Shown here in pieces: positions 19,915 to 38,562 of a DNA stretch of 64,000 nt. The notes under the pieces were generated by a model, which worked only from the letters and a program-made list of their open reading frames with translations, made no database searches and was not told the DNA's origin. Made by a program: the position numbers and the translations under genes. How positions within the stretch are numbered: the stretch's first letter is position 1; every line of letters starts with the position of its first letter. The stretch covers positions 1,663 through 65,662 of the IMG/VR virus record IMGVR_UViG_3300020037_009719; one strand, given 5' to 3'. The stretch is from a virus.

Positions 19915-21894
19915 ATGAAAAAAATAGGTTCAGCATCAGGTCCTTCTAAGGCTTCAAAACATTTAGGAAAAAAAATGTTTTCTCGTGATAAAAAACTTGA
20001 AGATAAAAAAATTACTAAACCTTTAGAAGAGGTACATCCAGATGAGAAATTTTATAACGTTGACAAAAACGAATTAGAAGAAGTAATGTCTTCTAAAAAC
20101 CGTACGTCAAGTTACTGGTTGCCAGAAACAGATATTCCTGATTACTTTGTGTTACAACGTATGATGAAAAACATTAATACTGTTTGTGGTTTTATCACTG
20201 GAAAAGCATTGAGAGTTAATTTCTCTGAGATTGATGGTCCAAGTCATGCAGATTTTGCTGGTGAAGAAATTACTATTTCTATCGGCTCATTATATGACTA
20301 CCGTATTCCTTTCCATATGAGATTGAATATTGTTTTAGCTTTAGGTATTCATGAATCTTGGCATGTAAAATATACTACTCCTGCTATGGAGAGAATGTTA
20401 GTGCAAAATGGTTTAACAAAAAGTAAAATTTCTCGTTTTGGATTTGGTAAAACTCAAAAAGTTGCAGACTTTAGCCAAAGTGGTAAACTTTTCAAACATA
20501 ACTTCCAAACATTTTTAGCAAATTGTGTTGAAGATAGACGTATTGAACATTTAGGGTTAATTGATTACCCTGGGTATGTTTACTACATGGAAGAGTTTCG
20601 TAAATACGGGTTGTGGTGTAACATTAATGCTTTGTTAAACCCTGTAACTAAACCAGATTGGAATAACCCAGACCATTTTTATGGTGCATTAACACAATAC
20701 ATTGCATTTAAAAATGTAGCTCCAGAAATCTTACCAGTATTTGCTTCTTATGGACCGAATACAAAAGAATTCAAAGCTTTAACAGATAAAGTAGATGCAA
20801 TTTGTAAAGACGTTCCATTAACTTACGATGACACAATGTCACAGTCTTTAGAATTGTTGAAATTGTATCCTGACGAGCAAAAAAACAAACAAGCTAAGGA
20901 AAAAAATTGTAACGGAGATGGTAACGGTAAAAATCAAGGACCACAAATGGCAGAAGGAACTGCTGCTGATGGTAAAACTGTAAAACCAAGTAAAGACGAA
21001 AAAGAAGCAATTGGTGACATAAAAGACGATAATCAACCTTATGCTACTTCTGAGCAAAAAGATATTAAAATTGAAGATCGTTTTGACAAACATGACCAAT
21101 ACAGCCACGTTCATATTGAACCTGCAGCAGAAGGTCGTTTTGACCAAGCTGTTTTTGACCAAGCAAGTGAAATTGCTCGTCAAATTAGCAAAAATTTATC
21201 TTTCTTAGATTCACGTTTCAATCGTGTAACAGAAGCTTTTGAAATGAGAAATGGTGAATTGGATGAGGATGCAATCTTTGGTTTAAAATTCAACAAGGAT
21301 ATTTTCTACGAAGAAGAAGAAGCTCCAGGTTACTCAATGGATTTTGGAATCTTGATTGATGAGTCTGGTTCAATGCACGGTAGCAAAATTCGTGATGCTA
21401 AAATTGCTGCATTAGCTTTAGCAATTGCTTTGAAAGACAATCAACATATTAATTTATTTGTTTACGGTCACACAGCAAATACGGGAGGTCACCCAATTAC
21501 AATGTACAAATACTTTGACCAATTAGAAAAAGGTTGCCAAGATATTTCAACATTGTTTTCAGTAGAAGCAAGATCTAACAATGCAGATGGTTATGCAATT
21601 TCTGCAATGGGAGATATCTTAAACAAAGGTAAATCAAGACAAAAAGTTTTAATTGTTGCATCTGACGGTCAACCACACGCATCAGGTTACGGTGGAAGAC
21701 AAGCTAACCAACATACTGCTCAAATGGTTCAAAAACTTGAAATGCAAGGAATGTTTGTTTGTCAAATTGCAATGGAAAACTTTAACTCTGCTGAAATGTT
21801 TACAAACTTTGTTCCTTATGACAAAAACAGCTTAGGAGTTAACTTGAAAAAAGTGTTGTTAAAAAAATTAGTAGAAATCTCAAACTTAGTATAA
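19915..21894 (+). CDS. von Willebrand factor A domain protein (CobT/NorD-like partner of the AAA+ ATPase)
   Basis: C-terminal MIDAS motif ILIDESGSM; long acidic central region. Adjacent to the MoxR-like gene. Confidence 0.7.
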   Translation: MKKIGSASGPSKASKHLGKKMFSRDKKLEDKKITKPLEEVHPDEKFYNVDKNELEEVMSSKNRTSSYWLPETDIPDYFVLQRMMKNINTVCGFITGKALRVNFSEIDGPSHADFAGEEITISIGSLYDYRIPFHMRLNIVLALGIHESWHVKYTTPAMERMLVQNGLTKSKISRFGFGKTQKVADFSQSGKLFKHNFQTFLANCVEDRRIEHLGLIDYPGYVYYMEEFRKYGLWCNINALLNPVTKPDWNNPDHFYGALTQYIAFKNVAPEILPVFASYGPNTKEFKALTDKVDAICKDVPLTYDDTMSQSLELLKLYPDEQKNKQAKEKNCNGDGNGKNQGPQMAEGTAADGKTVKPSKDEKEAIGDIKDDNQPYATSEQKDIKIEDRFDKHDQYSHVHIEPAAEGRFDQAVFDQASEIARQISKNLSFLDSRFNRVTEAFEMRNGELDEDAIFGLKFNKDIFYEEEEAPGYSMDFGILIDESGSMHGSKIRDAKIAALALAIALKDNQHINLFVYGHTANTGGHPITMYKYFDQLEKGCQDISTLFSVEARSNNADGYAISAMGDILNKGKSRQKVLIVASDGQPHASGYGGRQANQHTAQMVQKLEMQGMFVCQIAMENFNSAEMFTNFVPYDKNSLGVNLKKVLLKKLVEISNLV

Positions 21895-22532
21895 TGGCTG
21901 AAAAAAAAGAAGACGGTAAAGGGAGAAAACTTCCCTTTACTATCAAATACGAAATCGAAGAAACTGCAGATGGTGCAGATGTAAACTTTAAGCTTGAAAA
22001 CAGCGAAGAAGATCGTTTGTTTGCTTACATGGTTACTTTATGGGACCTTAGTCAATTACTTGACAGAGCAATGGATGATAAACGTATTCCAACAGAAGTA
22101 AAAGCAGATTTCTTAACAGCTGCTAAGATTTTGAAAGATATGACCCAGGCTTGTAAAATGAAAGTAGAAGAAAAGCTTAAAATGGGAACTGAAACAACTA
22201 TCATGGAAAGATTACAAAAACTTTTCAAAGATGTAGCAGGTGACATGAATGAAGAAAATCCTTTCAAAGATTTAAAAGACCTAGGTAAAGATGGAATGAA
22301 ACCATCTAAGGTAGTCATCGGTGGAGATGTTCCAGAAGAAATTCGACAACAACTTGAGGATGCTCTCAAAGCACAATTCGGTGAAGATATTGACATCGGT
22401 AACATGTCAAAAAAAGAAACTGAAGAACTTATCAGTAAACGAAAATCAAAAGGTGAAAAGTCTGACGATGAAGTTGACTTTGATGATTTAGATAAAAAAT
22501 CAAATAAAGATTCATCTGATATTGATATGTAA
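21894..22532 (+). CDS. hypothetical acidic protein
   Basis: 212 aa, strongly acidic especially at the C-terminus. Confidence 0.5.
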   Translation: MAEKKEDGKGRKLPFTIKYEIEETADGADVNFKLENSEEDRLFAYMVTLWDLSQLLDRAMDDKRIPTEVKADFLTAAKILKDMTQACKMKVEEKLKMGTETTIMERLQKLFKDVAGDMNEENPFKDLKDLGKDGMKPSKVVIGGDVPEEIRQQLEDALKAQFGEDIDIGNMSKKETEELISKRKSKGEKSDDEVDFDDLDKKSNKDSSDIDM

Positions 22533-22536
22533 AAAA

Positions 22537-22648
22537 TAACTGAAACTGTAACAATTAAAAAAGTATTATGTAGAGTTACAGGGTTGAGGACCGAATAGGG
22601 GGGCTACATCTTCAGGAATCGGCTTAGACCTGTTATAGTTTCAGTTTA
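22537..22648 (+). other. structured intergenic element: GC-rich core flanked by 17-bp inverted repeat
   Basis: aactgaaactgtaacaa ... ttgttatagtttcagtt (16/17 complementary) enclose gggttgaggaccgaataggggggctacatcttcaggaatcggcttagacc. This core is far more GC-rich than its surroundings. Confidence 0.4.
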
Positions 22649-22659
22649 ATTTTAAAGTT

Positions 22660-23040
22660 ATGAATTTACAAATTTATGCCAAAGGGACTAAGTTAAGGTT
22701 AACAAAAGATTGGAATTTCCAATGTCATAAAGATGGTTATGGGCTTATGCCTTACTCACCTACAAATAGTTATACTTTACAAGCAGGTACAATCTTATCA
22801 ATTCATGATATTGATATTCGAGGTAATTGCAAAGTTCCAAGGTCAGTTTGTTTTCTTATCCCTAAAAAAGGTTGTCCTAGTGATGATTTTTACGAAAGTC
22901 AAACTTTTCATGTTGACTTCAATCAATTAGATAATTTAGAGTTTGAGTTAAATTCAAAAGCTGACTTAAAGTTAAATTCAATCAAGTTGAAAGATATGAT
23001 AAGTTCAATCAATGAAGAGTTAAACGTTAAAGAAAAATAA
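22660..23040 (+). CDS. hypothetical small protein with C-terminal INxELN-like motif
   Basis: ORF; C-terminus ...MISSINEELNVKEK. Confidence 0.45.
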   Translation: MNLQIYAKGTKLRLTKDWNFQCHKDGYGLMPYSPTNSYTLQAGTILSIHDIDIRGNCKVPRSVCFLIPKKGCPSDDFYESQTFHVDFNQLDNLEFELNSKADLKLNSIKLKDMISSINEELNVKEK

Positions 23041-23755: not shown

Positions 23756-24003
23756 TATGGTTGAAAGAACTAAAACTTTAAGTTCTCGTGAACAGAAAGC
23801 ACAGAGATTGAAAGAACAAGTATTAAAAACTGAACAAAGTTTAAACGCACTTATATACTTATATGAAAAGCGTTACCTATATATTACAACAGTAAGTAAG
23901 TAAATAATTGTTTTAATTTATTTTATTTCCTACTTTTACATTAAGCATTAACAGGTATGCTTAATAATACTCCCTGTTTATAAATCTTATTATTTATTAA
24001 TTA

Positions 24004-24528
24004 ATGAAAGAAGTAAGATTATGTGCTAATCAAGAGTGTGGTAAAGAGTTCACTGTTTGGTCTTCACAAAAGAAGAGATATTGTTGTAGAAAGTGCACAA
24101 TGACTTTAGAAAGGCGAGAGTCAATAAGACAAGAGAAAACTGGAAAACCAAACCCCAAAGTATCAATTGCACTGAAAAATTCTATTTCAGCTAAAAAATA
24201 TCAATTTAAAAAGGGAAAAGACAATCCAGCATTTGGACGAAATCAAACAGGTGAAGCAAATCACAATTGGAAAGGTGGAAAAACAAATAAGAATCAAAAA
24301 TTAAGAAATAGTCCACAGTATAAAATTTGGCGACAAGCTTGTATGGAACGAGATCACTTTCAATGTACTGATTGTGGTGCAAAGGGATATTTACAAGTAC
24401 ATCATATAAAAGAGGTCTCTAACTACCCTGAACTTATTTGGGAACTTGATAACGGAAAAACAGTTTGCGTGTCGTGTCACGAAAAAATACACGGAAGATT
24501 TATAGGAAAATTTAAACAACAAAAATAA
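24004..24528 (+). CDS. HNH homing endonuclease
   Basis: N-terminal Cys-rich region; HHIKEVSNYPE...NGKTVCVSCHEKIH HNH motif. Confidence 0.75.
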   Translation: MKEVRLCANQECGKEFTVWSSQKKRYCCRKCTMTLERRESIRQEKTGKPNPKVSIALKNSISAKKYQFKKGKDNPAFGRNQTGEANHNWKGGKTNKNQKLRNSPQYKIWRQACMERDHFQCTDCGAKGYLQVHHIKEVSNYPELIWELDNGKTVCVSCHEKIHGRFIGKFKQQK

Positions 24529-25421
24529 TGGAAAATAAAAAAAAATATGCCTGTATAAGTTTATCAGGTGGGATGGACTCTTCTACTTTACTTCTTAAAT
24601 TGTTAGTTGAAGGTTATAATGTTACTGCTTTATCTTTTAATTACGGTCAAAAGCACTCTGTAGAATTAGAAAGAGCAACTGAATTAGTGAAATATATTAA
24701 ATCAGATTCAAAAGGGGCTGGAAAAAGACAATCTGGAACTTTAACTCATCAAATTATTAAACTAGATGGTTTAGGACAATTGTTAAATTCAACTTTAGTT
24801 GAAGGTGGTTCAGATGTTCCAGAAGGGCATTATGCTGAAGAAAATATGAAAGACACGGTTGTGCCAAATCGTAATAAAATATTTTCTTCAATTATTCAAG
24901 CAGTTGCTTTATCTATAGCAGAACAAAATAATACTGAATGCGCTATTGCTATGGGTATTCATGCTGGTGATCATGCTATCTACCCTGATTGTAGACAAGA
25001 GTTTAGAGATGCAGATTTTGAAGCTTTCAAACAAGGTAATTGGGGGTCTGAAAAAGTAATCATCTATACTCCTTATCTTCATACTGATAAATTCGGTATT
25101 TTAGAAGATGGGTTAGTTTGTTGTGAAAAGTTAAGTTTAGATTTTAACGAAATATATAAACGTACTAATACAAGTTATAAGCCAATTTTTATCAGAGAAG
25201 TTTCTAAACAAACAATAGACGATAAAGACTATTACACCCCTGAAAGTAATGGTAAATGGTATTCAGATTATAAGTCAGCAAGTTCGGTAGAACGAATAGA
25301 AGCATTTATTAAATTAGGTAAACAAGACCCAGTTGAATATGCTGATGAAACAGGACCTGTTTCATGGGAAACAGCAAAAGCTTATGTAGAGAAAGTTCTC
25401 GCTGAACATAGTAATAAATAG
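24528..25421 (+). CDS. queC: QueC-like PP-loop ATP pyrophosphatase (7-cyano-7-deazaguanine synthase family)
   Basis: ISLSGGMDSST (SGGxDS PP-loop), FNYGQKH, VPNRNKIF, YPDCRQEF all align to E. coli QueC. The C-terminal CxxC Zn cluster is absent and the C-terminus is extended. Confidence 0.7.
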   Translation: MENKKKYACISLSGGMDSSTLLLKLLVEGYNVTALSFNYGQKHSVELERATELVKYIKSDSKGAGKRQSGTLTHQIIKLDGLGQLLNSTLVEGGSDVPEGHYAEENMKDTVVPNRNKIFSSIIQAVALSIAEQNNTECAIAMGIHAGDHAIYPDCRQEFRDADFEAFKQGNWGSEKVIIYTPYLHTDKFGILEDGLVCCEKLSLDFNEIYKRTNTSYKPIFIREVSKQTIDDKDYYTPESNGKWYSDYKSASSVERIEAFIKLGKQDPVEYADETGPVSWETAKAYVEKVLAEHSNK

Positions 25422-25440
25422 TTAAATTATTTTAAATTAA

Positions 25441-25474
25441 GAACCTACGCTACGCGTAGGTTCTCCTTGTTTTT
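25441..25474 (+). terminator. rho-independent terminator
   Basis: gaacctacgc-tac-gcgtaggttc 10-bp stem plus T-tract. Confidence 0.65.
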
Positions 25475-25501
25475 AACGTTTTTTGTTATTTTCGGTAGGA
25501 A

Positions 25502-25527
25502 GTTTACAAGTTTAACCATATCTTTAG
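25502..25527 (+). promoter_or_regulatory. GTTTAC-N11-TATCTTTAG promoter-like motif
   Basis: Exact consensus; 24 nt upstream of the ATG at 25551. Confidence 0.5.
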
Positions 25528-25550
25528 ATTATAAATTAAAACATATAGCA

Positions 25551-25889
25551 ATGAGTTATAAAAAATTCAAAATGACTGAAGAAGAGTTTATCGATTATTG
25601 CGAATCTCTTACTGAACAAGAATTGAAAAGATTTCAATTAGAGTCAAAAAAGGATGATATTCAAAGAGCACACCATTGGCTTTATATTGCATGTATTACA
25701 ATGGTTTTAGCATCATTTTCTACAAACTGGGCTAAACATGTAGCAGATTCTACATTATTATATGTTACTTGCTTTATAATTACAATAGTTTCAATTTTTT
25801 TCGTTTTCGGTTTACTTAAAAGAATAAAACAAGAAAAATTAATGTATAAAATGTTAGAAATTTTCTACAAAGAAAACAATATCCTTTAA
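25551..25889 (+). CDS. hypothetical membrane protein
   Basis: In-frame ATG after the promoter motif; the track start overlaps the terminator. Two TM helices. Confidence 0.45.
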   Translation: MSYKKFKMTEEEFIDYCESLTEQELKRFQLESKKDDIQRAHHWLYIACITMVLASFSTNWAKHVADSTLLYVTCFIITIVSIFFVFGLLKRIKQEKLMYKMLEIFYKENNIL

Positions 25890-25891
25890 TC

Positions 25892-26071
25892 ATGGCAAAG
25901 AAAAAAGAAATTATCAAATTTGACCCCGAAGAAGTTAGAAAAGGGTTAAAAGGTATTCGCAGACAAGAAGAAATTGATAACCAATTGCGAATACCTACTC
26001 ATACTGTTCAAAAAAGTAAAAAAGAATACACTCGTAAACGTAAACATAAGAAAAATTTTGAAGTTGAATAA
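25892..26071 (+). CDS. hypothetical small basic protein
   Basis: 59-aa Lys/Arg-rich ORF below the track threshold. Confidence 0.35.
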   Translation: MAKKKEIIKFDPEEVRKGLKGIRRQEEIDNQLRIPTHTVQKSKKEYTRKRKHKKNFEVE

Positions 26072-26143
26072 TTTTATATATCTTTAGTAAAAAATAAATT
26101 TAAAGTTCTGAACCTCGCATTACATATACACCTTGTTATACAC
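26072..26143 (+). promoter_or_regulatory. leader of cassette array: TATCTTTAG -10-like box plus a GTTRRRY-like half site
   Basis: atatctttag at 26080-26090; acatatacaccttGTTATAc at 26122-26143 matches the right arms of the downstream inverted-repeat elements. Confidence 0.35.
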
Positions 26144-26199
26144 AGTACGGTTTATTAATGTTGAATGCTGATACAAAGAATAATTAAAATTAAAAAAAT

Positions 26200-26532
26200 A
26201 TGCACAAACAAAAGGAAGTAAAAATAAATGTTGATGATAAAATACAACCACTAATTCAATTTATATTTGATAGATTAACTGGTTTGATACCAATAGCATC
26301 TTGTATAGGTGGAGATGAATCACAAAACGAAAGTATGGATTGTTATATACTACTAATAGTTAGGAATCATAATCATCTAAATCATCTAATGGATTTATGT
26401 TCATCTTGGCATTGTCAGTATATCAAACCAAATGGTGAAACTGGAAATGTACCAACATATAGAATAAGTATTTCTAATTTAAACGATGTGTTGGATAAAT
26501 TGAATTTGATAGATGAAAATTATATTTTTTAA
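26200..26532 (+). CDS. hypothetical protein (first array ORF)
   Basis: 110-aa ORF, preceded by a 9-codon uORF in the cacggtttattaATG motif. Confidence 0.45.
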   Translation: MHKQKEVKINVDDKIQPLIQFIFDRLTGLIPIASCIGGDESQNESMDCYILLIVRNHNHLNHLMDLCSSWHCQYIKPNGETGNVPTYRISISNLNDVLDKLNLIDENYIF

Positions 26533-26646
26533 TTTACACCGAACTTAATTTGATACACGAATATAGTATTGTGTATAACGTTCGGGCGGTTGGCGTTCGT
26601 TGCCGACTTTGGAACAAGAAACTTTAACTTTAAAAATAAATTTGAT
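26533..26646 (+). repeat. degenerate inverted-repeat element (attC-like, divergent)
   Basis: ccgaac-ttaatttg-atacac ... gtgtat-aa-cgttcgg inverted repeat; ATAACGttcgg and ggttggcg echo the CTAACGGTTGGC motif. Confidence 0.35.
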
Positions 26647-26889
26647 ATGGAAAACAAAACTTCAACAAGCCACGAAAACGGCAATGACGCTAACCGCTTG
26701 TTAGCACCAGTTATTTTTTGGCAACGCTTTGACCAAGTTAAACCACAAGGCGATGCGGAATATTTGGTGTGCAATACAGATGGCGTTATTCGAGTTAGTT
26801 ACTTTGATGGCAAAGATTGGGGATATTTAGCTATTGTAAAAGAAAATATTACGCATTGGTCAATACTTCCGAGTGTGCCAGTCATATAA
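26647..26889 (+). CDS. hypothetical protein (cassette ORF, GC-richer than the genome)
   Basis: 81-aa ORF from ATG 26647 (track start 26569 lies inside the repeat). Contains an internal GCTAACcgcttGTTAGC mini-palindrome. Confidence 0.45.
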   Translation: MENKTSTSHENGNDANRLLAPVIFWQRFDQVKPQGDAEYLVCNTDGVIRVSYFDGKDWGYLAIVKENITHWSILPSVPVI

Positions 26890-26893
26890 TTGG

Positions 26894-26986
26894 TGCTAAC
26901 GGTTGGCAATATATGTAGTTGCCATGCACGAACTTAAAAATTAAATATAAACCTTAATAGGCAATTACATATATTGCTTGTTAGCA
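26894..26986 (+). repeat. attC-like imperfect inverted repeat element 1
   Basis: Left arm tgCTAACggttggcaatatatgtagttgcc; right arm ggcaattacatatattgcttGTTAGCa. Arms pair 7+12+5 nt with ggttg/aa asymmetry (3-nt bulge). Confidence 0.6.
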
Positions 26987-26998
26987 AATCGTAAAATT

Positions 26999-27154
26999 AT
27001 GGCATCAGAGAAGAAAAAACGTAAAGCAGATAAAAGACTTCATTGGGGTAGAGGTAAGAACTTCATGAAGTGGGTTGGTAAAGGCATCAAAGGTCTTTGT
27101 TATTTCACATCATCTCAAAGACAAGCAGATAAGAAGTTCGACATTGACGAATAA
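26999..27154 (+). CDS. hypothetical small basic protein (cassette ORF)
   Basis: 51-aa ORF MASEKKKRKADKRLHWGRGKNF... between two attC-like elements. Confidence 0.35.
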   Translation: MASEKKKRKADKRLHWGRGKNFMKWVGKGIKGLCYFTSSQRQADKKFDIDE

Positions 27155-27163
27155 TTTTATGTT

Positions 27164-27257
27164 TGCTAACGGTCGGCAATATGAAATGGTTGCCTTGTAA
27201 GACGTTTAAAATTTAGTAATAGCCTATCGGCAACTTTTTTATATTGCTTGTTAGGCA
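27164..27257 (+). repeat. attC-like imperfect inverted repeat element 2
   Basis: tgCTAACggtcggcaatatgaaatggttgcc ... ggcaacttttttatattgcttGTTAGGCa; same bulged architecture. Confidence 0.6.
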
Positions 27258-27271
27258 CAGTAATTTATCAA

Positions 27272-27529
27272 ATGAAAATATATCAAACAAATGCAGCACT
27301 TGGTTATAGACAACTTGCATTTCTAATTAGATTAGATAAAAGTGCGAATGGACACAACTACCTATGTATAGGCACACAAAATATTAATGACAACGAAATG
27401 TATCAAATTGGTAAAATAGTTGAAGATTTAGAAGATTTTTATTTGGAAGATACAACTTTCAAAATAACTGATTCTGAATTAAACGGAACTTATCTGTTTG
27501 ATTACTGGGTTTCTCATTATTGTGCCTAA
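27272..27529 (+). CDS. hypothetical protein (cassette ORF)
   Basis: ATG 27272 (track start is TTG inside the repeat). Stop TAA lies inside the GCCTAAC inverse-core-like motif. Confidence 0.45.
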   Translation: MKIYQTNAALGYRQLAFLIRLDKSANGHNYLCIGTQNINDNEMYQIGKIVEDLEDFYLEDTTFKITDSELNGTYLFDYWVSHYCA

Positions 27530-27618
27530 CGGTTGGGTGTATGAGAAGGTTTGCTTAGATGAACTTTCAAATTAATACAAATACATGTAGCAAACTTTCT
27601 TATACACCTTGTTATATG
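27524..27618 (+). repeat. attC-like imperfect inverted repeat element 3
   Basis: GCCTAACggttgggtgtatgagaaggtttgct ... agcaaactttcttatacaccttGTTATAt. Confidence 0.6.
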
Positions 27619-27652
27619 CTTGCACGGTTTATTAATGATAAAATTAATTAAA

Positions 27653-27985
27653 ATGAAAAAGTTTAAATTTGAAGATTTACAATTAATTAATGTAGGCGAT
27701 ATTTATGCTATTACTTATAACGATAAAATAATTACCCTTGAAGGTAAAACCACATTTTCGACAATAAGTAATGCGAAAAATATGCTTCAAAAAGTATTAA
27801 CTGCTAATTATCATCAAGGACATTATTGGCACAAAGGTAAAGAAAATACCTTTTCTGATGAAGGTGGGCATATGAGAAACGGGGGTGTTATGGCTGGTTT
27901 GGATAAAATATTTAAAAAATTAGGCAAAGAACTAACTGAAGAATTACTTTCTAATGGCGTTTTTGTGATTAAAAAAATACAATAG
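27653..27985 (+). CDS. hypothetical protein (cassette ORF)
   Basis: ATG after the conserved cacggtttattaatg motif. Confidence 0.45.
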   Translation: MKKFKFEDLQLINVGDIYAITYNDKIITLEGKTTFSTISNAKNMLQKVLTANYHQGHYWHKGKENTFSDEGGHMRNGGVMAGLDKIFKKLGKELTEELLSNGVFVIKKIQ

Positions 27986-28013
27986 TAATTTAGTAGCACG
28001 TTTGTAGTGCTTG

Positions 28014-28107
28014 CATATAACGGCTTGGTGTATGAGAAGGTTTGCTTTGATGAACTTCAAATTTACACTGAACTTGATAGCAAACTTTCTCATACACCTT
28101 GTTATAG
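28014..28107 (+). repeat. attC-like imperfect inverted repeat element 4 (near-duplicate of element 3)
   Basis: cATAACggcttggtgtatgagaaggtttgct ... agcaaactttctcatacaccttGTTATAg. Confidence 0.6.
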
Positions 28108-28151
28108 TTAGTTTTATTTTTTATTTTACAAAATTATAAATTTTCATAGAT

Positions 28152-28451
28152 ATGACTGAAGAACAAATGAAAGAATATGTAGTAAATGGTGGAAAACTTT
28201 TTACTATCACTTTGATTGACACTATTAGAGATGGTGGAACAAAGATTATAAAAACAACAAAAGACGATTATTATATCCATAAGGATAGTAAAAAGTTTCA
28301 TTCTGGTTACACACCAAGTGAAGAAAATTTAATAACAGATTTTTTGTTAATAGAATACTTGGTTGAACGAATTGAAACATACATCAAAAGATGTGTGGAA
28401 GATGTTGAACGAAACAAAAATCTGTTAATAGAAATTCAAAATAAAAAATAA
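28152..28451 (+). CDS. hypothetical protein (cassette ORF)
   Basis: 99-aa ORF. Confidence 0.45.
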   Translation: MTEEQMKEYVVNGGKLFTITLIDTIRDGGTKIIKTTKDDYYIHKDSKKFHSGYTPSEENLITDFLLIEYLVERIETYIKRCVEDVERNKNLLIEIQNKK

Positions 28452-28457
28452 TATTAA

Positions 28458-28529
28458 CTATAACGGTTCGCAGATAAGCGAAGGCAAAGATTTAGAAACT
28501 AAAATTTTAACTTAAAAACAGAATATAAT
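28458..28529 (+). repeat. degenerate attC-like element 5
   Basis: ctATAACGGttcgcagataagcgaaggc hairpin; right arm not recognisable. Confidence 0.3.
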
Positions 28530-28778
28530 ATGAAAACGAGAACATCAATTTACCACCGCACCTTTGCTTTTGCTTATGTGCTGTTAGTAGCTGTTATTTT
28601 TTGCGGTTGCGAAGGTAACGTAGAGCAGAAATCAACACCATATAGGCTTAGTGGCGGTCTTAATGTAGAAATAGTGATAATTGATAGTTGCGAATACATC
28701 ATAATAAATGGTGGAAATGCAACTTGGGGAAGCCACAAAGGGAACTGTAAATTTTGTGCAGAACGTAGCAAAAAATAA
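28530..28778 (+). CDS. putative lipoprotein (cassette ORF)
   Basis: Signal peptide with an FCGC lipobox-like cysteine; GC-richer. Confidence 0.45.
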   Translation: MKTRTSIYHRTFAFAYVLLVAVIFCGCEGNVEQKSTPYRLSGGLNVEIVIIDSCEYIIINGGNATWGSHKGNCKFCAERSKK

Positions 28779-28780
28779 TT

Positions 28781-28879
28781 GCTACTAACGTTTTGCGTAT
28801 ATACGAGGTACGCCTTAACGAAAATTTCAAATTATAAACAAATGCTTGTAGGCGTATCTTGTATATACGCTGTTAGGCG
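28781..28879 (+). repeat. attC-like imperfect inverted repeat element 6
   Basis: gctaCTAACgttttgcgtatatacgaggtacgcc ... ggcgtatcttgtatatacgctGTTAGGCg. Confidence 0.6.
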
Positions 28880-28890
28880 AAGTACTTATT

Positions 28891-29130
28891 ATGGATTTTA
28901 GAAAAACATTAAAATACCTACGCATTGTGCAAACGGTATCAAACGAAGAAAGGCACAAACAAGGATTGAAAAGATTAGGTCGTGGCTATTTCAATGCACA
29001 CAGATTTAACCCTTACAATCCGCTTAGTTACATAGCACTCATTATTATACTAATTGTAGGTATATTAATGTTTGGCTTTGTCGGATTTTGGAAAGAAACT
29101 ACAACGCTCAATCCGTTTCGGTGGGATTAG
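28891..29130 (+). CDS. hypothetical membrane protein (cassette ORF)
   Basis: 79-aa ORF with a C-terminal TM helix. Confidence 0.45.
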   Translation: MDFRKTLKYLRIVQTVSNEERHKQGLKRLGRGYFNAHRFNPYNPLSYIALIIILIVGILMFGFVGFWKETTTLNPFRWD

Positions 29131-29136
29131 TATTTC

Positions 29137-29213
29137 GCCTAACGGTATCAAGCTAAAAGCTGACCGCCTTTATAAGCGGTTTGGTGATGGCGGTTTGATT
29201 TTAGGTTGTGTTA
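29137..29213 (+). repeat. attC-like imperfect inverted repeat element 7
   Basis: GCCTAACggtatcaagctaaaagctgaccgcc ... ggcggtttgattttaggttgtGTTATAt. Confidence 0.5.
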
Positions 29214-29238
29214 TATTTAGGTTTTTAAATTTTTAGCG

Positions 29239-29448
29239 ATGGAAGAAATGATAAATTGTAAATGCGAAAAATGCGGAGTTGATTACGAGAAACCTGCAAC
29301 TTTCAAAAAATGGAATGAAGAAAATACAAACGTGTTTTTTAGATGGAGTTTAGCATTTTGCGATATGTGCAGGCGAGAAAAAGAACGTGAAGCATTGAAA
29401 GCATTACCAAATGTTTTGAGTGCGTTGGCAGAAAATTTAAAAACTTGA
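29239..29448 (+). CDS. hypothetical Cys-rich small protein (last array ORF)
   Basis: 69 aa with CxC...CxxC...CxxC. Confidence 0.4.
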   Translation: MEEMINCKCEKCGVDYEKPATFKKWNEENTNVFFRWSLAFCDMCRREKEREALKALPNVLSALAENLKT

Positions 29449-29510
29449 ATATAACATAAATATATAACAACTGTCTTTTAAAACAGTAATAAAATTAACA
29501 GTTTTAAGTC

Positions 29511-30326
29511 ATGGAAACACTCATTGAAAGTAAAGTTAATCGATTTGTTGAAAAGTTAGAGTTAAAACGTTACTCTAAAAACACAAAAAATATATATCTT
29601 TCAAACTTTAAATCTTTTTTAAACTATTTTAAAGGAGATATAGATAATTTAAAAGATTCAGATATTTGTAATTATATTTTAACACAATCTAAAAACAAGT
29701 CGTACTCTTATCAAAATGTGTTAACAAATACTATTAAATTTTATTACGAAAAGGTAAATTATAGAAAAAGAAGGTTTTATAAAATAGAAAGACCTAAACA
29801 AGAAAGAAAGTTACCACAAGTGATTTCTAAAGAAGAAGTTTTAAAATCTATAGAGTTAATACCTAATTTAAAACATAAAGCAATAATTTCACTAGCTTTT
29901 TCTACTGGAATGAGAGTAAGTGAGATATGTAATTTGAAAATAGTAGATATTGATTCAAAGAGAATGATTTTAAGAATTTTAGATAGTAAAGGTAAAAAAG
30001 ATAGAATAGTTCCTTTATCTGAAAGTATACTAACTTTGTTGAGAAGTTATTGGCAAGAATATAAACCTAAATTTTATTTATTTGAATCCTATAAACCTGG
30101 GGTTAAATATTCGACAGCGAGTTGTAGACAAATATGGAATAAATATAAAATAAATAAGCAAAGTACTTTTCACACTCTTAGACATAGTTTTGCTACAACT
30201 ATGTTAGAAAATAAAACTGATATTAGGACAATTCAAAGACTTTTAGGTCATTCTAATTTGAAAACAACAGAAATATATACCCACGTTTCTACTGATTATT
30301 TGAAAACTTTAAAGTTACCTATATAA
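29511..30326 (+). CDS. tyrosine site-specific recombinase (integrase/XerC-D family)
   Basis: MRVSEI (Arg I), HTLRHSFAT (HxxR), LLGHS, IYTHV (catalytic Tyr). Confidence 0.8.
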   Translation: METLIESKVNRFVEKLELKRYSKNTKNIYLSNFKSFLNYFKGDIDNLKDSDICNYILTQSKNKSYSYQNVLTNTIKFYYEKVNYRKRRFYKIERPKQERKLPQVISKEEVLKSIELIPNLKHKAIISLAFSTGMRVSEICNLKIVDIDSKRMILRILDSKGKKDRIVPLSESILTLLRSYWQEYKPKFYLFESYKPGVKYSTASCRQIWNKYKINKQSTFHTLRHSFATTMLENKTDIRTIQRLLGHSNLKTTEIYTHVSTDYLKTLKLPI

Positions 30327-30352
30327 ACATATTGATTTTATTAAGGTTTGAA

Positions 30353-30378
30353 GTTTACTAATTATACTGTATCTTTAG
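30353..30378 (+). promoter_or_regulatory. GTTTAC-N11-TATCTTTAG promoter-like motif
   Basis: Exact consensus; 24 nt upstream of the ATG at 30402. Confidence 0.5.
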
Positions 30379-30401
30379 GTTATAAATTTAAAACCAATAA
30401 A

Positions 30402-30968
30402 ATGAATAAATCAGTAAACAAATCAGCAAAAGAAGAAGTTGCAGACTTCTTAGAAGGTAAACCATTCTTGAATTCAAGACAAGCTTATCGTGCATTTAAA
30501 ACTGCTAACCCAACATCAAAAGTAAGCCAAGGGTATTTCTACACCTTATTTACAACTTTCGGTGACAAGGAAACTAAAGCATCAAAAGTAATTGATTTTA
30601 TCAAACCAGAAATCTACGGTAATTGCTCTAAAGCTTACAAAGCTTATTGTGCTGACACTGAAGAAGGTAAGAGAGTTGTATTTGCATACTTCTTAACTAA
30701 CTGGAAGAAAGAATTAGGTATTGTTGGTTCAGCAAAAATCAAAAAAGAAAAAGTAGCTAAAAAAGAGAAAGTTGTTAAAGCAAAACAACCAAAAATTACA
30801 CGTGCGGTTGTTGAAGTTAAAAACTTATCAGCTAAACAAATTTTAGCTAAAATTGCAGAACACGACAAAGCTTCTAAAATTTTAAATTTCAACGTGAAAA
30901 ACAAAGCACGTATTTTAAAAGAAGCAATTTCTTTCTTTCAAACAAAAGGATTTGAAGTAATTGCTTAA
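30402..30968 (+). CDS. hypothetical lysine-rich protein
   Basis: In-frame ATG downstream of the promoter motif; KIKKEKVAKKEKVVKAK tract. Confidence 0.45.
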   Translation: MNKSVNKSAKEEVADFLEGKPFLNSRQAYRAFKTANPTSKVSQGYFYTLFTTFGDKETKASKVIDFIKPEIYGNCSKAYKAYCADTEEGKRVVFAYFLTNWKKELGIVGSAKIKKEKVAKKEKVVKAKQPKITRAVVEVKNLSAKQILAKIAEHDKASKILNFNVKNKARILKEAISFFQTKGFEVIA

Positions 30969-31032
30969 AGCATTACCCAGGAAGTCGAAAAGGGGTATAC
31001 TAGAGTAGACAATTACAAATATTTTTAAGAAT

Positions 31033-31311
31033 ATGTGGAAAGTAATAACTTTTGAATTAATTCCGTTTCTTTTAATTATTTTATTTATTACTGAGATTGC
31101 AATCCCATTACTTTTCGGGAAACCACTTTTTGGTTCTTTTCGCAAAACAAAAAAAGAACCAAAAGATGAAAGTTCAATTGATTCTAAAATTGAAACGACT
31201 TCAAGTGAGTATGAAAAGGTAAAGGAAAAAGCAAAAGAAGTAAAGAGTGAAATTCAAAAAGAATCAGAAAGAGTGAAAGACTGGGAACAAAAAGCGAATG
31301 ACCTACCGTAA
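31033..31311 (+). CDS. hypothetical membrane protein
   Basis: N-terminal TM helix, acidic tail. Confidence 0.4.
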   Translation: MWKVITFELIPFLLIILFITEIAIPLLFGKPLFGSFRKTKKEPKDESSIDSKIETTSSEYEKVKEKAKEVKSEIQKESERVKDWEQKANDLP

Positions 31312-31412
31312 CCAGTTAAAGTAAAAAAAAGGTATTAGTTGAATGTCTTTTTAATACATTTAGGTCTAAATTAAAAGTGAAAATAATTATTAACTAAAAA
31401 CAAAAAGCAAAG

Positions 31413-32606
31413 ATGAAAAATCTTAATCTAAAAAAAGTATTGTTCCTCGCAATTGGAATTATCGGCTTAGTTTTCTTGATTGGATACGCAGGTTCCATTG
31501 GAGAAGAAGTAAAAGCTGGTGAAATTGTTGTAATTCAAAAACCAGTATCTGGTGAATTATCTGTACACACAAAACCAGGTTGGGTGTGGCAACATTTTGG
31601 TATTGCTACTCATTACAAAAAATCTTTCCAATTCTGGTTTACCAAACCAACTGAAAAAGATGGAGTAGATAACTCTATAAAAGTTCGTTTTAACGATGGT
31701 GGTTATGCTAACATTTCTGGTTCAGTTCGTGTTGACCTTCCACTTGACCAGGTTGCAATATTGAATTTACATACGAAGTTTGGTTCTCAAGAAGCTATTG
31801 AACACCAGCTTGTAAAAACAGTATTAGAAAAATCTATCTATATGACAGGTCCACTAATGAGCTCTGCTGAATCTTATGCTGAGAAACGTAATAGTTTACT
31901 AAGTTATATTGAAGACCAAGCAACACAAGGTGTGTATAAAACGGTAACGAAGACAATTAAAACTATCGACCCTATATCAGGAGCTGAAAAAACTACTTCT
32001 GTCGTTGAAATTGTTGTAAATAATAACATGCCGCAGCGTCAAGAAAAATCACCAATATCAGAAACTCATATTAAATTATCTGGTCTTGCTTTGAATAGTA
32101 TTGATTATGATGCAACTGTTGAAAAACAAATTTCCGCTCAGCAACAAGCTGTTATGCAAGTTCAAACTGCTATTGCTAACTCAAAAAGAGCTGAACAAGA
32201 TGCCTTAACTGCTGCTAAACAAGGTGAAGCTTCTGCTGCTAAAGCTAAGTGGGACCAAGAAGTTATCAAAGCTAAAGTATTAACTGAAGCTCAACAAGAA
32301 TTAGAAAAACAAAAACTTGCCACTCAACAAGCTGTACTTTACAAGCAACAATTAATACTTGAAGGTGAAGGTGAAGCTACTAAACAAAAGTTGATTATGC
32401 AAGCGAATGGTGCCTTAGATCAAAAACTTGAAGCTTATAAAACAGTTCAAAAATATTGGGCAGATGCATTCTCTAAATACCCAGGAGCTATAGTGCCAAT
32501 GATCCAAACAGGTGGTAATTCATCAGGAAATGGAGCATTGAATTTTGCAGAACTCATGTCAATGAAAGCAGCAAAAGATTTAGCTCTTGATTTAAAAAAT
32601 AAATAA
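31413..32606 (+). CDS. SPFH/band-7-like membrane protein
   Basis: N-terminal TM, a central beta-rich region, and a long Ala/Gln/Lys coiled coil as in HflK/C or flotillin. Confidence 0.45.
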   Translation: MKNLNLKKVLFLAIGIIGLVFLIGYAGSIGEEVKAGEIVVIQKPVSGELSVHTKPGWVWQHFGIATHYKKSFQFWFTKPTEKDGVDNSIKVRFNDGGYANISGSVRVDLPLDQVAILNLHTKFGSQEAIEHQLVKTVLEKSIYMTGPLMSSAESYAEKRNSLLSYIEDQATQGVYKTVTKTIKTIDPISGAEKTTSVVEIVVNNNMPQRQEKSPISETHIKLSGLALNSIDYDATVEKQISAQQQAVMQVQTAIANSKRAEQDALTAAKQGEASAAKAKWDQEVIKAKVLTEAQQELEKQKLATQQAVLYKQQLILEGEGEATKQKLIMQANGALDQKLEAYKTVQKYWADAFSKYPGAIVPMIQTGGNSSGNGALNFAELMSMKAAKDLALDLKNK

Positions 32607-36433: not shown

Positions 36434-36505
36434 TGCGTTCTTAGCTGAGGTGGTTTAGCATTTGGTTGAAGCCCAAAAGACACTGGTTCGACTCCAGTAG
36501 ATCGC
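36434..36505 (+). tRNA. tRNA-Phe (GAA)
   Basis: Manual cloverleaf: acceptor GCGTTCT/AGATCGC (1 mismatch), D GCTG/TAGC, anticodon stem TTTGG/CCAAA, loop TTGAAGC, T arm ACTGG-TTCGACT-CCAGT. Confidence 0.75.
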
Positions 36506-36511
36506 ACAATA

Positions 36512-36585
36512 TGATTCTGTAGCTCAGTTGAATAGAGCAATTGCCTTCTAAGCAATAGGTCAAAGGTTTGAATCCTTTCAGAATC
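36512..36585 (+). tRNA. tRNA-Arg (TCT)
   Basis: Acceptor GATTCTG/CAGAATC, D GCTC/GAGC, anticodon ATTGC-CTTCTAA-GCAAT, T AAAGG-TTTGAAT-CCTTT. Confidence 0.75.
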
Positions 36586-36597
36586 ACTTAAAATAAA

Positions 36598-36679
36598 TGC
36601 CGACGCGCTAACGTTGGAGGGTTAGGACAGTCTGTAAAACTGTTACATAAGTCTAGTAGGTTCGAATCCTATCGGCGGC
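36598..36679 (+). tRNA. tRNA-Tyr (GTA), class II with 12-nt variable arm
   Basis: Acceptor GCCGACG/CGGCGGC (1 mismatch), D CTAA/TTAG, anticodon ACAGT-CTGTAAA-ACTGT, T GTAGG-TTCGAAT-CCTAT. Confidence 0.7.
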
Positions 36680-36762
36680 ACTAGCAGAACACAACTGCTG
36701 AAACAAATAGGTGATTCAGTTATCGGTGAGCAAGTCTGAACTAAAACAAAATGTTGCTTAAT

Positions 36763-36839
36763 GGACATATAGCTCAGCTGGTAGTAGCAAATGATTGTTA
36801 ATCATTAGGTCGTAGGTTCGAACCCTACTATGTCCGCCA
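36763..36839 (+). tRNA. tRNA-Asn (GTT) with encoded CCA
   Basis: Acceptor GGACATA/TATGTCC, anticodon AATGA-TTGTTAA-TCATT, T GTAGG-TTCGAAC-CCTAC, then G-CCA. Confidence 0.75.
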
Positions 36840-36848
36840 AGTAAACAA

Positions 36849-36934
36849 GCGAGTGTCGCATAGAGCCCGATTGCACCTGACTTCCAATCAGGAAAGATAA
36901 AATCACAACGCAGGTTGAAATCCTGTCGCTCGCT
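36849..36934 (+). tRNA. aberrant tRNA-like gene (anticodon TCC, Gly?) with 17-nt AT-rich extra arm
   Basis: Acceptor GCGAGTG/CGCTCGC (G-U), anticodon CCTGA-CTTCCAA-TCAGG, T GCAGG-TTGAAAT-CCTGT, 3-bp D stem. Variable region AAAGATAAAATCACAAC is atypical for tRNA-Gly. Confidence 0.45.
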
Positions 36935-36978
36935 CTCAGCCAGTTGTTAAATCTGGTGAAAATTAAAACTTAACAAAC

Positions 36979-37051
36979 GCAAAAATAGCTCAATTGGTAG
37001 AGCGTTGCCTTGCCAAGGCAAAGGTTGTGAGTTCGAGACTCATTTTTTGCT
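36979..37051 (+). tRNA. tRNA-Gly (GCC)
   Basis: Acceptor GCAAAAA/TTTTTGC, D GCTC/GAGC, anticodon TTGCC-TTGCCAA-GGCAA, T GTGAG-TTCGAGA-CTCAT. Confidence 0.75.
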
Positions 37052-37052
37052 C

Positions 37053-38489: not shown

Positions 38490-38562
38490 GACCTCGTAGC
38501 TCAATTGGCGGAGCACTATACTTTTAATATAGGGGTTATGGGTTCAAGTCCCATCGGGGTCA
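38490..38562 (+). tRNA. tRNA-Lys (TTT)
   Basis: Acceptor GACCTCG/CGGGGTC (G-U), D GCTC/GAGC, anticodon CTATA-CTTTTAA-TATAG, T ATGGG-TTCAAGT-CCCAT. Confidence 0.75.

Follow-up and report, generated by a model that had tools for sequence, protein, structure and literature searches.

Results

Organization of the array

The window analysed here is the whole 64,000-nt stretch of viral DNA (IMG/VR record IMGVR_UViG_3300020037_009719, positions 1,663 to 65,662), and all positions below are counted from its first letter. As judged from its sequence, the region 26100-30326 is an integron-like platform on the + strand, in which nine units are followed by an attI-like sequence and then by a recombinase gene. 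In each unit a hairpin site comes first and the ORF after it, and the nine units are all arranged head to tail. The recombinase gene closes the array, being located 3′ of the nine small ORFs and co-directional with them.

At the recombinase-distal end lies a truncated site, S0 (26100-26139), of which a loop remnant, the 3′ arm and a GTTATA box are left; the 5′ TAAC arm is missing, and the 3′ arm together with the leader downstream resembles S4 and the S4 leader. Unit A (26136-26578) carries an ORF of 110 aa (26200-26532, G+C 0.264), is native-like in composition and has complementary ends, starting with GTTATACACAG and finishing with TTGTGTATAA. It is followed by unit B (26579-26899), consisting of the long-class site S1 (26574-26705) and ORF B (26647-26889), by unit C (26900-27169) with site S2 (26895-26985) and ORF C (26999-27154, 51 aa, basic), and by unit D (27170-27529) with site S3 (27165-27255) and ORF D (27272-27529), whose stop codon falls inside the TAAC box. 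Unit E (27530-28020) contains S4 (27525-27616) and ORF E (27653-27985), and unit F (28021-28463), the ends of which form a 27-nt inverted repeat, contains S5 (28016-28106) and ORF F (28152-28451); S4 and S5 correspond to elements 3 and 4 of an earlier sequence-only reading of this DNA. Unit G (28464-28788), with ends forming a 22-nt inverted repeat, has the long-class site S6 (28459-28588) and ORF G (28530-28778), the predicted N-terminus of which spans the 3′ arm of S6 and reads like a lipoprotein signal, with a hydrophobic stretch ending in FCGC. Unit H (28789-29142) comprises S7 (28784-28877) and ORF H (28891-29130), in which one hydrophobic stretch suggests a membrane protein, and unit I (29143-29454), bounded by a 28-nt inverted repeat, comprises S8 (29138-29215) and ORF I (29239-29448) with the cysteine pairs CxC..C and CxxC. 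The ATG codons of ORFs B and G sit in the loop of the preceding hairpin site, and the 3′ box is inside the ORF for both (GTTAGC at 26700 for B, GTTAGT at 28583 for G), which corrects the layout given earlier.

At the attI-like junction (29442-29475), 56 nt upstream of the ATG of the recombinase gene (29511-30326, 271 aa, G+C 0.240), the last TATAAC box (29450-29455) precedes ATAAATATATAAC. Pfam searches of the nine unit proteins returned no match besides a sub-threshold DUF551 for B, and Rfam at the gathering threshold detected only tRNAs in the whole window. No close relative was found when 24001-32000 was compared with cultured phages by blastn; the patchy matches obtained were to QueC, unit B (phage 11b) and unit C (a cyanophage).

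The recombinase and the attI-like site

The recombinase matched Phage_integrase and SAM_4 in Pfam. Its best NCBIfam match was XerA (XerA_Arch) with 206.7 bits, under the cut-off of 220, and XerC and XerD scored about 165 bits each against a cut-off of about 330; by these curated cut-offs the enzyme is a Xer-like tyrosine recombinase, yet outside the Xer family proper. The integron integrase model TIGR02249 gave 167.8 bits (cut-off 265), with the match split over two stretches. The protein is colinear with XerA (4a8e) and has 31 aa (179-209) where VchIntIA (2a3v) has 77 (179-255). The IntI-specific insert (I2 helix region) is absent, and the recombinase falls outside the integron integrases.

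The junction follows the consensus ATTnnnnnTAAC-TAtTATATrTAaa (TAAC-TAtTATATrTAaa) in 58 of 72 related loci, with a median distance of 55 nt to the downstream ATG, and the conserved sequence may function like attI, as the insertion point for cassettes. The attI and unit sites share the (T)AAC core alone. In a scan of bacterial genomes, relatives of the recombinase came mainly from Bacteroidota; those in Bacteroidota genomes and MAGs had 41-54% identity, and few of them were accompanied by arrays. Matches in Bradyrhizobium and similar genomes (35% identity) were rejected as unrelated elements, and no sites were found there.

Structure and strand asymmetry of the sites

Read from 5′ to 3′, the sites have xxTAAC, G(G), a bulge of 3-4 nt on the TAAC arm, then arm, loop, arm, T(T) and finally GTTAxx. 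They fall into two classes of about 91 and about 130 nt, and those of the window measure 78-132 nt. All eight internal sites (S1-S8) fold as long imperfect hairpins; for four sites folded on the + strand against shuffled controls, z ranged from -4.5 (S2) to -7.1. RNAalifold of 54 short-class sites gave 20 pairs, 14 of them with compensatory changes, the arm sequences being free to vary; these covariation counts were drawn from sites chosen for pairing. The features of attC-type sites were all found here, namely imperfect inverted repeats, AAC/GTT outer boxes, conserved structure with free sequence and asymmetric unpaired bases, of which TAAC, GTTA and arm complementarity were demanded by the site scan and are not independent observations. 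Most attC-like sites have TAACG(G/T)T in common.

G·T wobble mismatches in the stems were biased to the + strand (154 sites, versus 25 for the - strand, P = 7e-24), and two G·T positions were near-invariant. Such a bias is equally compatible with an RNA hairpin in a transcript.

The ends of the units were also complementary. The 10 nt following GTTA of one site and the 10 nt preceding TAAC of the next were paired at 6.98 of 10 positions on average (n = 168), with at least 8 of 10 in 57%, against 3.14 when both stretches were taken at one site and 3.30 in random pairings; the last unit pairs likewise with the TAAC of attI. Since the end of a unit is complementary to the stretch just after its own GTTA box, an excised circular unit would bear one long imperfect hairpin.

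Many loops hold a start codon and lie directly upstream of ORFs. No universal loop motif was found, only A-rich hexamers (e.g. AAATTA, ACAAAA, CACAAA) being enriched over background. Sigma-70 promoter-like sites were not enriched (20 versus 25.2 expected, in a scan that left out Bacteroidota promoters), nor were intrinsic-terminator-like sites (1 versus 1.2 expected).

Related viral contigs and mobility of the units

The comparison set consisted of 77 IMG/VR contigs whose encoded recombinases are related to that of the window (42-61% identity). Most of them carry arrays of 2-14 sites on the same strand, directly upstream of the recombinase gene. Upstream of it, 208 sites lay within 5 kb (0.76/kb), and downstream there were 7 (0.02/kb), a 38-fold difference. 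The 171 units of these contigs included only 10 homologous pairs. In all eight informative pairs the upstream site was the more conserved one, and the G+C of site arms correlated with that of the downstream unit (r = 0.40, P = 9e-6), compared with r = 0.15 for the upstream unit. Unit B recurs with identical boundaries in phage 11b and in contigs L174 and L178, and unit G in the 317-kb contig L182; the copies of unit B in L174 and of unit G in L182 are homologous from the first base behind one TAAC up to the following TAAC, and the sequences on either side are unrelated. These comparisons, comprising the 8 pairs and the 2 detailed cases, indicate that a site moves together with the ORF that comes after it and not with the one before it. 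The integron layout implied by the sequence-only reading was not borne out, as the site belongs to the downstream ORF and the recombinase is not IntI.

Homologues of the unit ORFs were found in phage-like, not bacterial, contexts with the single exception of L178. Unit C is 84% identical in nucleotides to a Leptolyngbya phage gene. ORF H has more than 225 metagenomic homologues in phage-like contexts, and some homologues are ordinary genes, with no flanking sites, of other large phage contigs. Among contigs with a 100% identical recombinase, most have the same array; the sole array variant found in the window's own lineage (L189, L190) has its break inside the S3 loop, not at TAAC.

The Polaribacter phage isolates Freya_1 to Freya_10, which are otherwise near identical, encode an integrase 33% identical to the window recombinase and carry small ORFs immediately before its gene, over a length of 0 to 4.9 kb. 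Every breakpoint between them falls in a shared 3-4 nt (C)AAC, a single internal unit is precisely missing from one isolate, and unit content varies exactly at the junction beside the integrase. Comparison of these genomes thus demonstrates, at the sequence level, the gain and loss of precise AAC-bounded units. Its bearing on the array in the window would be by analogy, as the integrase is distant, the core is (C)AAC and the layout is partly different. A mirror-image integron, with the site 3′ of its ORF and crossover at GTTA, was ruled out by the site-linkage tests and the Freya junctions. Horizontally acquired, recombinase-linked cassettes had been proposed earlier in place of ancestral phage genes. 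This proposal was supported by the recurrence of B and G with the same boundaries and unrelated flanks, by the small number of homologous unit pairs and by the Freya units, which point to mobile units taken from a common pool and not to ancestral genes specific to the lineage.

Composition and codon usage

The G+C content of the window is 30.6%, and in 243-nt windows it has a mean of 0.306 (sd 0.037) and a 99th percentile of 0.403. For the 79 ATG-ORF genes, mean G+C is 0.306 (sd 0.030) and mean GC3 0.201 (sd 0.049). In comparison, G+C and GC3 were 0.395 and 0.333 for ORF B, 0.378 and 0.301 for G, 0.372 and 0.346 for C, and 0.358 and 0.338 for H; B, G and C rank first, second and third in G+C among the 79 genes, and the nine array genes hold five of the seven highest GC3 values (hypergeometric P = 1e-4). 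With the window genes of at least 300 codons as reference, the three lowest codon adaptation indices (CAI) among the 79 genes were those of H, at 0.401 (z = -4.9 relative to small non-array genes), B, at 0.445 (z = -4.0), and G, at 0.463 (z = -3.6); H is the strongest codon-usage outlier, and C has the fifth-lowest CAI. ORF I is mildly raised in G+C (0.338), and A, D, E and F are at background level or slightly under it (0.26-0.29).

Windowed G+C, GC3 and CAI, computed as the sequence-only reading had proposed, thus confirmed that B, G and H are richer in G+C than the background of about 30%. The value of about 40% given for all three holds for B (39.5%), is generous for G (37.8%) and overstated for H (35.8%), and C and I had been overlooked. 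G+C and codon usage are clearly foreign in B, G and H, and less so in C and I. Over all loci, the G+C of units was only modestly more variable than that of control segments (sd 0.047 versus 0.040).

Similarity of S4 and S5

The arms at 27536-27555 and 28027-28046 are identical in 20 of 20 positions, and between 27588-27616 and 28078-28106 identity is 97% across 29 nt, in agreement with the earlier description of these arms as near-identical. Over the whole sites identity is 86%, and in the loops 74%. The family to which both sites belong has 16 copies in 13 contigs, with a different ORF after each. S4 shares 90-93% identity with six copies from other contigs, compared with 86% with S5, and each of the two sites has closer relatives in other contigs than the other. 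The cause suggested earlier, recent duplication or site-specific exchange between the two units, is not supported by these comparisons; S4 and S5 resemble each other because units E and F both bear a member of one widespread family of sites.

Discussion

The region 26100-30326 is probably a phage-borne gene-capture platform, integron-like in working and differently built. Sequence comparison established the unit boundaries, the complementarity of the ends, the linkage of site and ORF, the recurrence of units and the association of array and recombinase. On this basis we infer that crossover would take place at the base of each hairpin, within its 5′ TAAC box, that the recombinase would presumably catalyse both insertion at attI and excision between sites, and that the excised unit would be a circular intermediate. 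The + strand would fold as single-stranded DNA and one strand would be exchanged, as in integrons; the (T)AAC core being all that the partner sites share fits such an exchange. The loops may contain expression signals. Circulation of the units among Bacteroidota phages of differing base composition would explain why B, G and H, and to a lesser degree C and I, look foreign and A, D, E and F native. In integrons the IntI insert is tied to recognition of the folded attC; as it is absent here, the hairpins may be recognized by another solution, or the reaction may be double-stranded.

A double-stranded reaction would retain the same cassettes and catalyst, with ordinary Xer-type recombination between direct TAAC-proximal core repeats of the kind proposed for pdif and IMEX, the hairpin having another role, for instance as an RNA structure or in regulation. 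A Xer-like enzyme without the IntI insertion would suit it, duplex excision between consecutive 5′ arms would give the same unit boundaries, and TAACG(G/T)T is common to most sites. We regard it as unlikely, because attI and unit sites show no identity over a 6-8 bp overlap, arms that vary freely yet remain complementary point to recognition of structure rather than sequence, and strong strand asymmetry is unexpected in a duplex site. Still less probable is a reading of the recombinase as a lysogeny integrase and of the hairpins as regulatory elements between early genes, like the promoter/stem-loop modules of T4-type phages, with turnover by homologous or illegitimate recombination between repeats. 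The annotation of cultured relatives as integrases, taken as temperate potential, the start codons in loops directly upstream of ORFs, the break of L189 and L190 in a loop and a wobble bias suited to RNA folding all agree with it; it does not account for the 38-fold enrichment of sites upstream, the conserved TAAC junction abutting the recombinase gene, Freya breakpoints sharing 3-4 nt only, recurrent units that start and stop exactly at TAAC, complementary unit ends, or the lack of promoter-like (sigma-70) and terminator-like enrichment.

It could also be argued that B, G and H are ancestral, their odd composition resulting from amino-acid content or expression level, and that S4 and S5 arose by recent local duplication. 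Short ORFs do give noisy estimates of composition, and some H homologues are ordinary genes without sites in other large phage contigs. This explanation is nevertheless contradicted already, and we consider it extremely improbable: the three genes have the three lowest CAI values of 79, with GC3 raised along with total G+C, units B and G recur with identical boundaries, and S4 and S5 are closer to sites in other contigs.

The proposed gene-capture platform resembles integrons in having a tyrosine recombinase beside an attI-like site of fixed position and small, arrayed ORFs of mostly unknown function, in its imperfect-palindrome sites with AAC/GTT outer boxes, variable arms, conserved pairing, an asymmetric bulge and (here predicted) crossover in a conserved triplet, and in the order of array, attI and recombinase (sense) along the strand of the cleaved AAC box. 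In contrast to integrons, the recombinase is Xer-like and without the IntI-specific insertion, the site is 5′ of its ORF, the ORFs face the recombinase without a Pc-type arrangement, the unit ends add 10-25 bp of complementarity, many sites hold the start codon of the ORF, and the replicon is a phage, probably of Bacteroidota. In an integron the cassette ORF lacks a promoter and precedes its attC, Pc drives expression and intI lies ahead of the array, an arrangement that was not found here. Xer modules (pdif of Acinetobacter plasmids, IMEX) likewise combine a Xer-type recombinase with gene modules flanked by inversely oriented site halves; pdif/dif are 28-bp duplex sites (11-6-11) for host XerC/XerD, whereas the present sites are hairpins of 80-135 nt with free arms, the element has its own recombinase gene, and its arrays show polarity, one end being attI-like.

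The PeSLs of T4-type phages, reportedly called 'mobile regulatory cassettes' by Arbiol et al. in 2010, are another case of repeated stem-loops between small phage ORFs of unknown function in a plastic region. PeSLs consist of a terminator-like stem-loop and an early promoter and shuffle by homologous recombination, with no dedicated recombinase; here there was no sigma-70 or terminator signal, breakpoints were of 3-4 nt (as seen in Freya) and a recombinase is linked. In shufflons (Rci, IncI plasmids), segments invert and thereby swap the C-termini of one protein. They too have a tyrosine recombinase gene directly downstream of segments bounded by short repeats, but the present units are independent ORFs in one orientation that are present in some genomes and absent from others. 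In virulent phages, one of them a Polaribacter phage, small ORFs flanked by attC-like sites have been described (phage CALINs/attC; Qi et al. 2023, PMC9892861), as isolated clusters of 2-3 predicted canonical attC with no integrase, tested with bacterial IntI1; in contrast to the present arrays, that work described neither a dedicated recombinase of the phages, nor an attI-like site, nor an architecture shared across a family. In the searchable literature, no description of the phage cassette system was found.

Integrons are regarded as bacterial devices and are defined by IntI. Phages have so far been reported with stray integron fragments only, and a dedicated and widespread phage platform would matter, if true. 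It is a real possibility, to be held tentatively, that Bacteroidota phages have their own, undescribed integron-like platform, with a Xer-like enzyme lacking the I2 domain, + strand hairpins, a (T)AAC core, insertion at attI and hundreds of small accessory genes swapped between unrelated phages; structure-specific cassette recombination could then have been invented independently, or the system could be a surviving relative of the transition from Xer to IntI. The IntI-specific domain would prove dispensable for capturing cassettes at hairpin-like sites, which bears on the evolution of IntI from Xer, and the platform would provide a mechanism for the fast turnover of small accessory genes in phage genomes, among which host-takeover or anti-defence functions can be speculated. 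The 'integrase' genes of flavobacterial phages, now taken as evidence of a temperate lifestyle (PMC8776804), would then be read differently, and the Polaribacter phages Freya and Leef and the Cellulophaga phage Ingeline would be cultured test systems.

Array layout and recombinase

The window, with a G+C content of 30.6%, looks like a piece of a large phage genome, since it encodes a DNA polymerase of phage type and a tail-like protein and has a cluster of tRNA genes. At 26100-29510, nine co-directional small ORFs are arranged with eight elements of 78-132 nt between them, namely sites S1 (26574-26705), S2 (26895-26985), S3 (27165-27255), S4 (27525-27616), S5 (28016-28106), S6 (28459-28588), S7 (28784-28877) and S8 (29138-29215). 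Each site is ordered as xxTAAC, G(G), a short bulge, an arm, a loop, the complementary arm, T(T) and GTTAxx, and S1-S8 all fold as long imperfect hairpins with a stability far above that of shuffled controls (made for four sites). The left end of the array (26100-26139) is a truncated site, S0, with the 3' half alone. On the right, the array closes with a single TATAAC box (29450-29455), with ATAAATATATAAC after it, at a distance of 56 nt from the recombinase gene. The nine units were designated A to I. In B and G, the start codon and the first 18 codons are encoded by the hairpin site itself (26647-26705 and 28530-28588, loop plus 3' arm), and the hydrophobic N-terminus of ORF G, ending FCGC, spans the GTTAGT box. 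Outside the array, a lone TAAC...GTTA-type inverted repeat with a G+C-rich centre (AACTGAAACTGTAAC ... CTGTTATAGTTTCAGTT) was observed at 22535-22662, between the ORFs 21894-22532 and 22660-23040.

The adjoining gene (29511-30326, same strand as the array) encodes a tyrosine recombinase of 271 aa with Phage_integrase and SAM-like domains. Its best score was to archaeal-type XerA (206.7 bits, just below the cut-off of 220), and the integron-integrase model gave 167.8 bits, well under the cut-off of 265. When aligned to solved structures, the protein was colinear with XerA and its catalytic motifs were visible, with 31 residues against 77 in Vibrio IntIA, the 77 including the IntI-specific insertion.

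Distribution of the array and recombinase in IMG/VR

Scanning IMG/VR with the recombinase yielded 77 contigs of low G+C, many of them 30-640 kb, with relatives of 42-61% identity. Sites were searched as TAAC...GTTA pairs with complementary arms, so TAAC, GTTA and pairing are presupposed and xAAC variants are missed; the closest relative (L001) has a CAAC-type site. At the original threshold, the scan of the window returned the array sites and one stray element. In most of the 77 contigs, arrays of 2-14 sites were located directly upstream of the recombinase and on its strand, and within 5 kb of the recombinase 208 sites were upstream and 7 downstream. From these sequences, we regard the array-recombinase architecture as a family trait.

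By length, the sites form two classes, of ~91 and ~130 nt. In the long class, which includes those of B and G, an ORF begins within the loop and continues across the 3' arm at 78 of 134 sites (58%). Alignment of 54 short-class sites gave a consensus hairpin of 20 pairs, 14 of which have compensatory changes. On the + strand, two G.T pairs hardly vary, being kept in 51 of the 54 sites while their neighbours covary freely (alignment columns 13/99 and 31/85; in S4 the 27531/27609 region and the GAAGG/CTTTC position). On the - strand these positions would read as fixed C.A mismatches, and the two pairs may be a feature of strand choice or recognition. A conserved ATTnnnnnTAAC-TAtTATATrTAaa was present at 58 of 72 loci, upstream of the recombinase start codon by a median of 55 nt, and is the predicted counterpart of attI.

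Unit boundaries and mobility

The 10 nt that follow the GTTA of one site pair with the 10 nt that precede TAAC in the site after it, at a mean of 6.98 of 10 positions (n = 168), compared with 3.14 for the flanks of the same site and 3.30 for random flanks. Within the array of the window, the complementary stretches extend to 22-28 nt (repeats I1, I2 and I7). Because their ends are complementary, the units are bounded by inverted repeats, and in a circularised unit the pairing of the ends would lengthen the hairpin stem.

The site is linked to the ORF downstream of it. In all 8 informative pairs of homologous units the upstream site was better conserved than the downstream one, and the G+C of the site arms correlates with that of the unit downstream (r = 0.40, P = 9e-6), not with that of the unit upstream. 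Units also recur in other genomes. Unit B has copies in Flavobacterium phage 11b, in the 39.5-kb phage contig L174 and in three more contexts, and unit G has one in L182, a 317-kb contig with 14 sites in a 10-kb stretch. In L174 and L182, homology to the window unit starts at the base after the TAAC of the upstream site, and in every recurrent copy of B or G it stops at the next TAAC (...AATTGGTGCTAAC, ...TTGCTACTAAC), with unrelated flanks.

Gain and loss of units were visible in Freya, a group of ten cultured Polaribacter phage isolates with an integrase 33% identical to the window recombinase. Apart from the small ORFs immediately upstream of the integrase, which amount to 0, 0.8, 1.7, 2.2, 4.0, 4.6 or 4.9 kb, the Freya genomes are near identical. 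An additional segment of ~0.5 kb with two small ORFs, beside the integrase, is unique to one isolate, and another is without one internal unit. All breakpoints fall within a common 3-4 nt (C)AAC, e.g. ...TTGTTTAC|AAC|ACCCCTATAACAAC..., and the phages Leef and Ingeline have a Freya-type junction before their integrases. Taken together, the unit boundaries, the linkage of site and downstream ORF, the recurrence and the Freya gains and losses argue that the unit is [site-ORF], with a predicted crossover inside the 5' box, at its AAC.

Most contigs with a 100% identical recombinase have an unchanged array, whereas two from independent samples (L189 and L190) differ. Their units D-I are 99.9% identical to those of the window, and their left flanks (L189 1-175, L190 1-159) are unrelated and coding-like, ending inside the S3 loop (window match from 27209). 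The resulting truncated S3 resembles S0 at the start of the window's array. The pair shows turnover in the lineage of the window, though away from the canonical core.

Folded single strand or duplex

We infer that recombination would act on a folded single strand. The sequence of the arms varies freely while their pairing is kept, and partner sites have just the (T)AAC core in common, without the identity of a 6-8 bp overlap. The strands are also unequal, the stem mismatches being G.T wobbles on the + strand at 154 sites vs the - strand at 25 (P = 7e-24), although an RNA hairpin could explain this bias as well. On the other side, the recombinase is without the IntI insertion, and identical products would be expected from an Xer-type reaction on duplex DNA between the 5' arms, which are direct repeats.

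Comparison with integrons

Along the strand carrying the cleaved AAC, the order array, attI, recombinase is that of a classical integron. However, the phage ORFs are oppositely oriented relative to the site and so point towards the recombinase, and neither the IntI domain nor the arrangement of an ORF followed by its attC is present. Since both are among the defining features of integrons, the phage system is not counted as a member and is filed here as a variant of the integron kind, outside integrons proper. Using integron tools on 10,705 phage genomes, Qi et al. 2023 (PMC9892861) reported three integrons and 17 small clusters of attC sites that lacked an integrase, one of these clusters in a Polaribacter phage; a recombinase-attI-array system of phages was not described. 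In Bartlau et al. (PMC8776804), the genes of Freya, Leef and Ingeline are annotated as integrases and read as a sign of temperate potential, and cassettes are unmentioned. A full-text literature search, with partial journal coverage, returned nothing closer than these two papers.

Composition and origin of the array ORFs

Composition was calculated for the 79 ATG-ORF genes called in the window (mean G+C 0.306, sd 0.030; mean GC3 0.201, sd 0.049). The sequence-only reading had described ORFs B, G and H as GC-richer (~40%) than the background. Per-gene G+C, GC3 and codon adaptation bore this out, and the figure itself is exact for B (26647-26889; G+C 0.395, GC3 0.333) but not for G (28530-28778; 0.378, 0.301) or H (28891-29130; 0.358, 0.338). 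A fourth array ORF, C (26999-27154; 0.372, 0.346), ranks third in G+C, behind B (first) and G (second). The nine array genes hold 5 of the 7 top GC3 values (P = 1e-4), and the lowest codon adaptation of the 79 genes, with the long genes of the window as reference, was that of H, B and G (z = -4.9, -4.0 and -3.6, respectively). A, D, E and F were unremarkable in both respects, and ORF I had ordinary codon adaptation with mildly raised G+C (0.338). A single large G+C peak stands out in the window (up to 46% in 243-nt windows), and it is due to the tRNA cluster.

Homologues numbered 47 for B, 378 for G and more than 225 for H, unnamed beyond generic or automatic labels and nearly all metagenomic, with the phage 11b protein PHG11b_5 as main exception. 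They lie in phage-like strings of small ORFs. The best matches are phage, not bacterial, with one bacterial-looking exception (contig L178). The G copy in L182 has 37% G+C in a contig of 35%, and H copies have 26-33% in contigs of 25-27%. Phages of the unit pool span 23-47% G+C, and unit G+C across the family was modestly more variable than that of control segments (sd 0.047 vs 0.040, Levene P = 0.0015). That B, G and H are foreign in composition fits an origin in a pool of units shared among phages, and the earlier proposal of horizontally acquired, recombinase-mobilised cassettes is supported.

The arms of S4 and S5, noted before as almost identical, are indeed so (20 nt identical, 29 nt at 97%). 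The recent duplication proposed from this did not hold, because S4 is 90-93% identical to six outside copies and 86% to S5. Sixteen sites in 13 contigs have both arms within 2 mismatches of S4/S5, each before a different ORF, and no homology was detected among the 11 callable ORFs downstream of them. Units E and F, and unit A with its decayed S0, carry one widespread site family; these three units are A+T-rich and native-looking.

Related loci and other genes of the window

An HNH endonuclease and a QueC-like gene (24004-25421) lie directly upstream of the array, and the left end of the 36-kb phage 11b (L078 156-4000) is syntenic with this region. Phage 11b has hairpin sites and the unit B homologue PHG11b_5, and the recombinase search gave no match in it; its array is CALIN-like and without its enzyme. 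In L178 (5934-7402), a unit B homologue with a long-class site lies among bacterial-looking neighbours (type I restriction-modification genes, HSP70, rhodopsin), and after it come TAAC-TAGTATATAGG and a tyrosine recombinase of 347 aa in convergent orientation. This locus may represent a form of the system in a chromosome or prophage, with another layout.

The small, basic ORF C has 84% nucleotide identity over 111 nt (27008-27118) to a hypothetical gene of the cyanophage Lbo-JY46 of Leptolyngbya (L079 3001-3111), where by annotated coordinates the ORFs around it are densely packed, with intergenic gaps small or absent. ARAGORN detected a six-gene tRNA cluster (36435-37169), and an Rfam match indicated a seventh tRNA in the cluster (37053-37169). 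Single tRNA-Lys and tRNA-Met genes lie at 38490-38563 and 3336-3406. Two neighbouring ORFs of ~410 aa (39271-40497 and 41046-42281) both match PHROG 2475, of unknown function, and are apparently paralogues.
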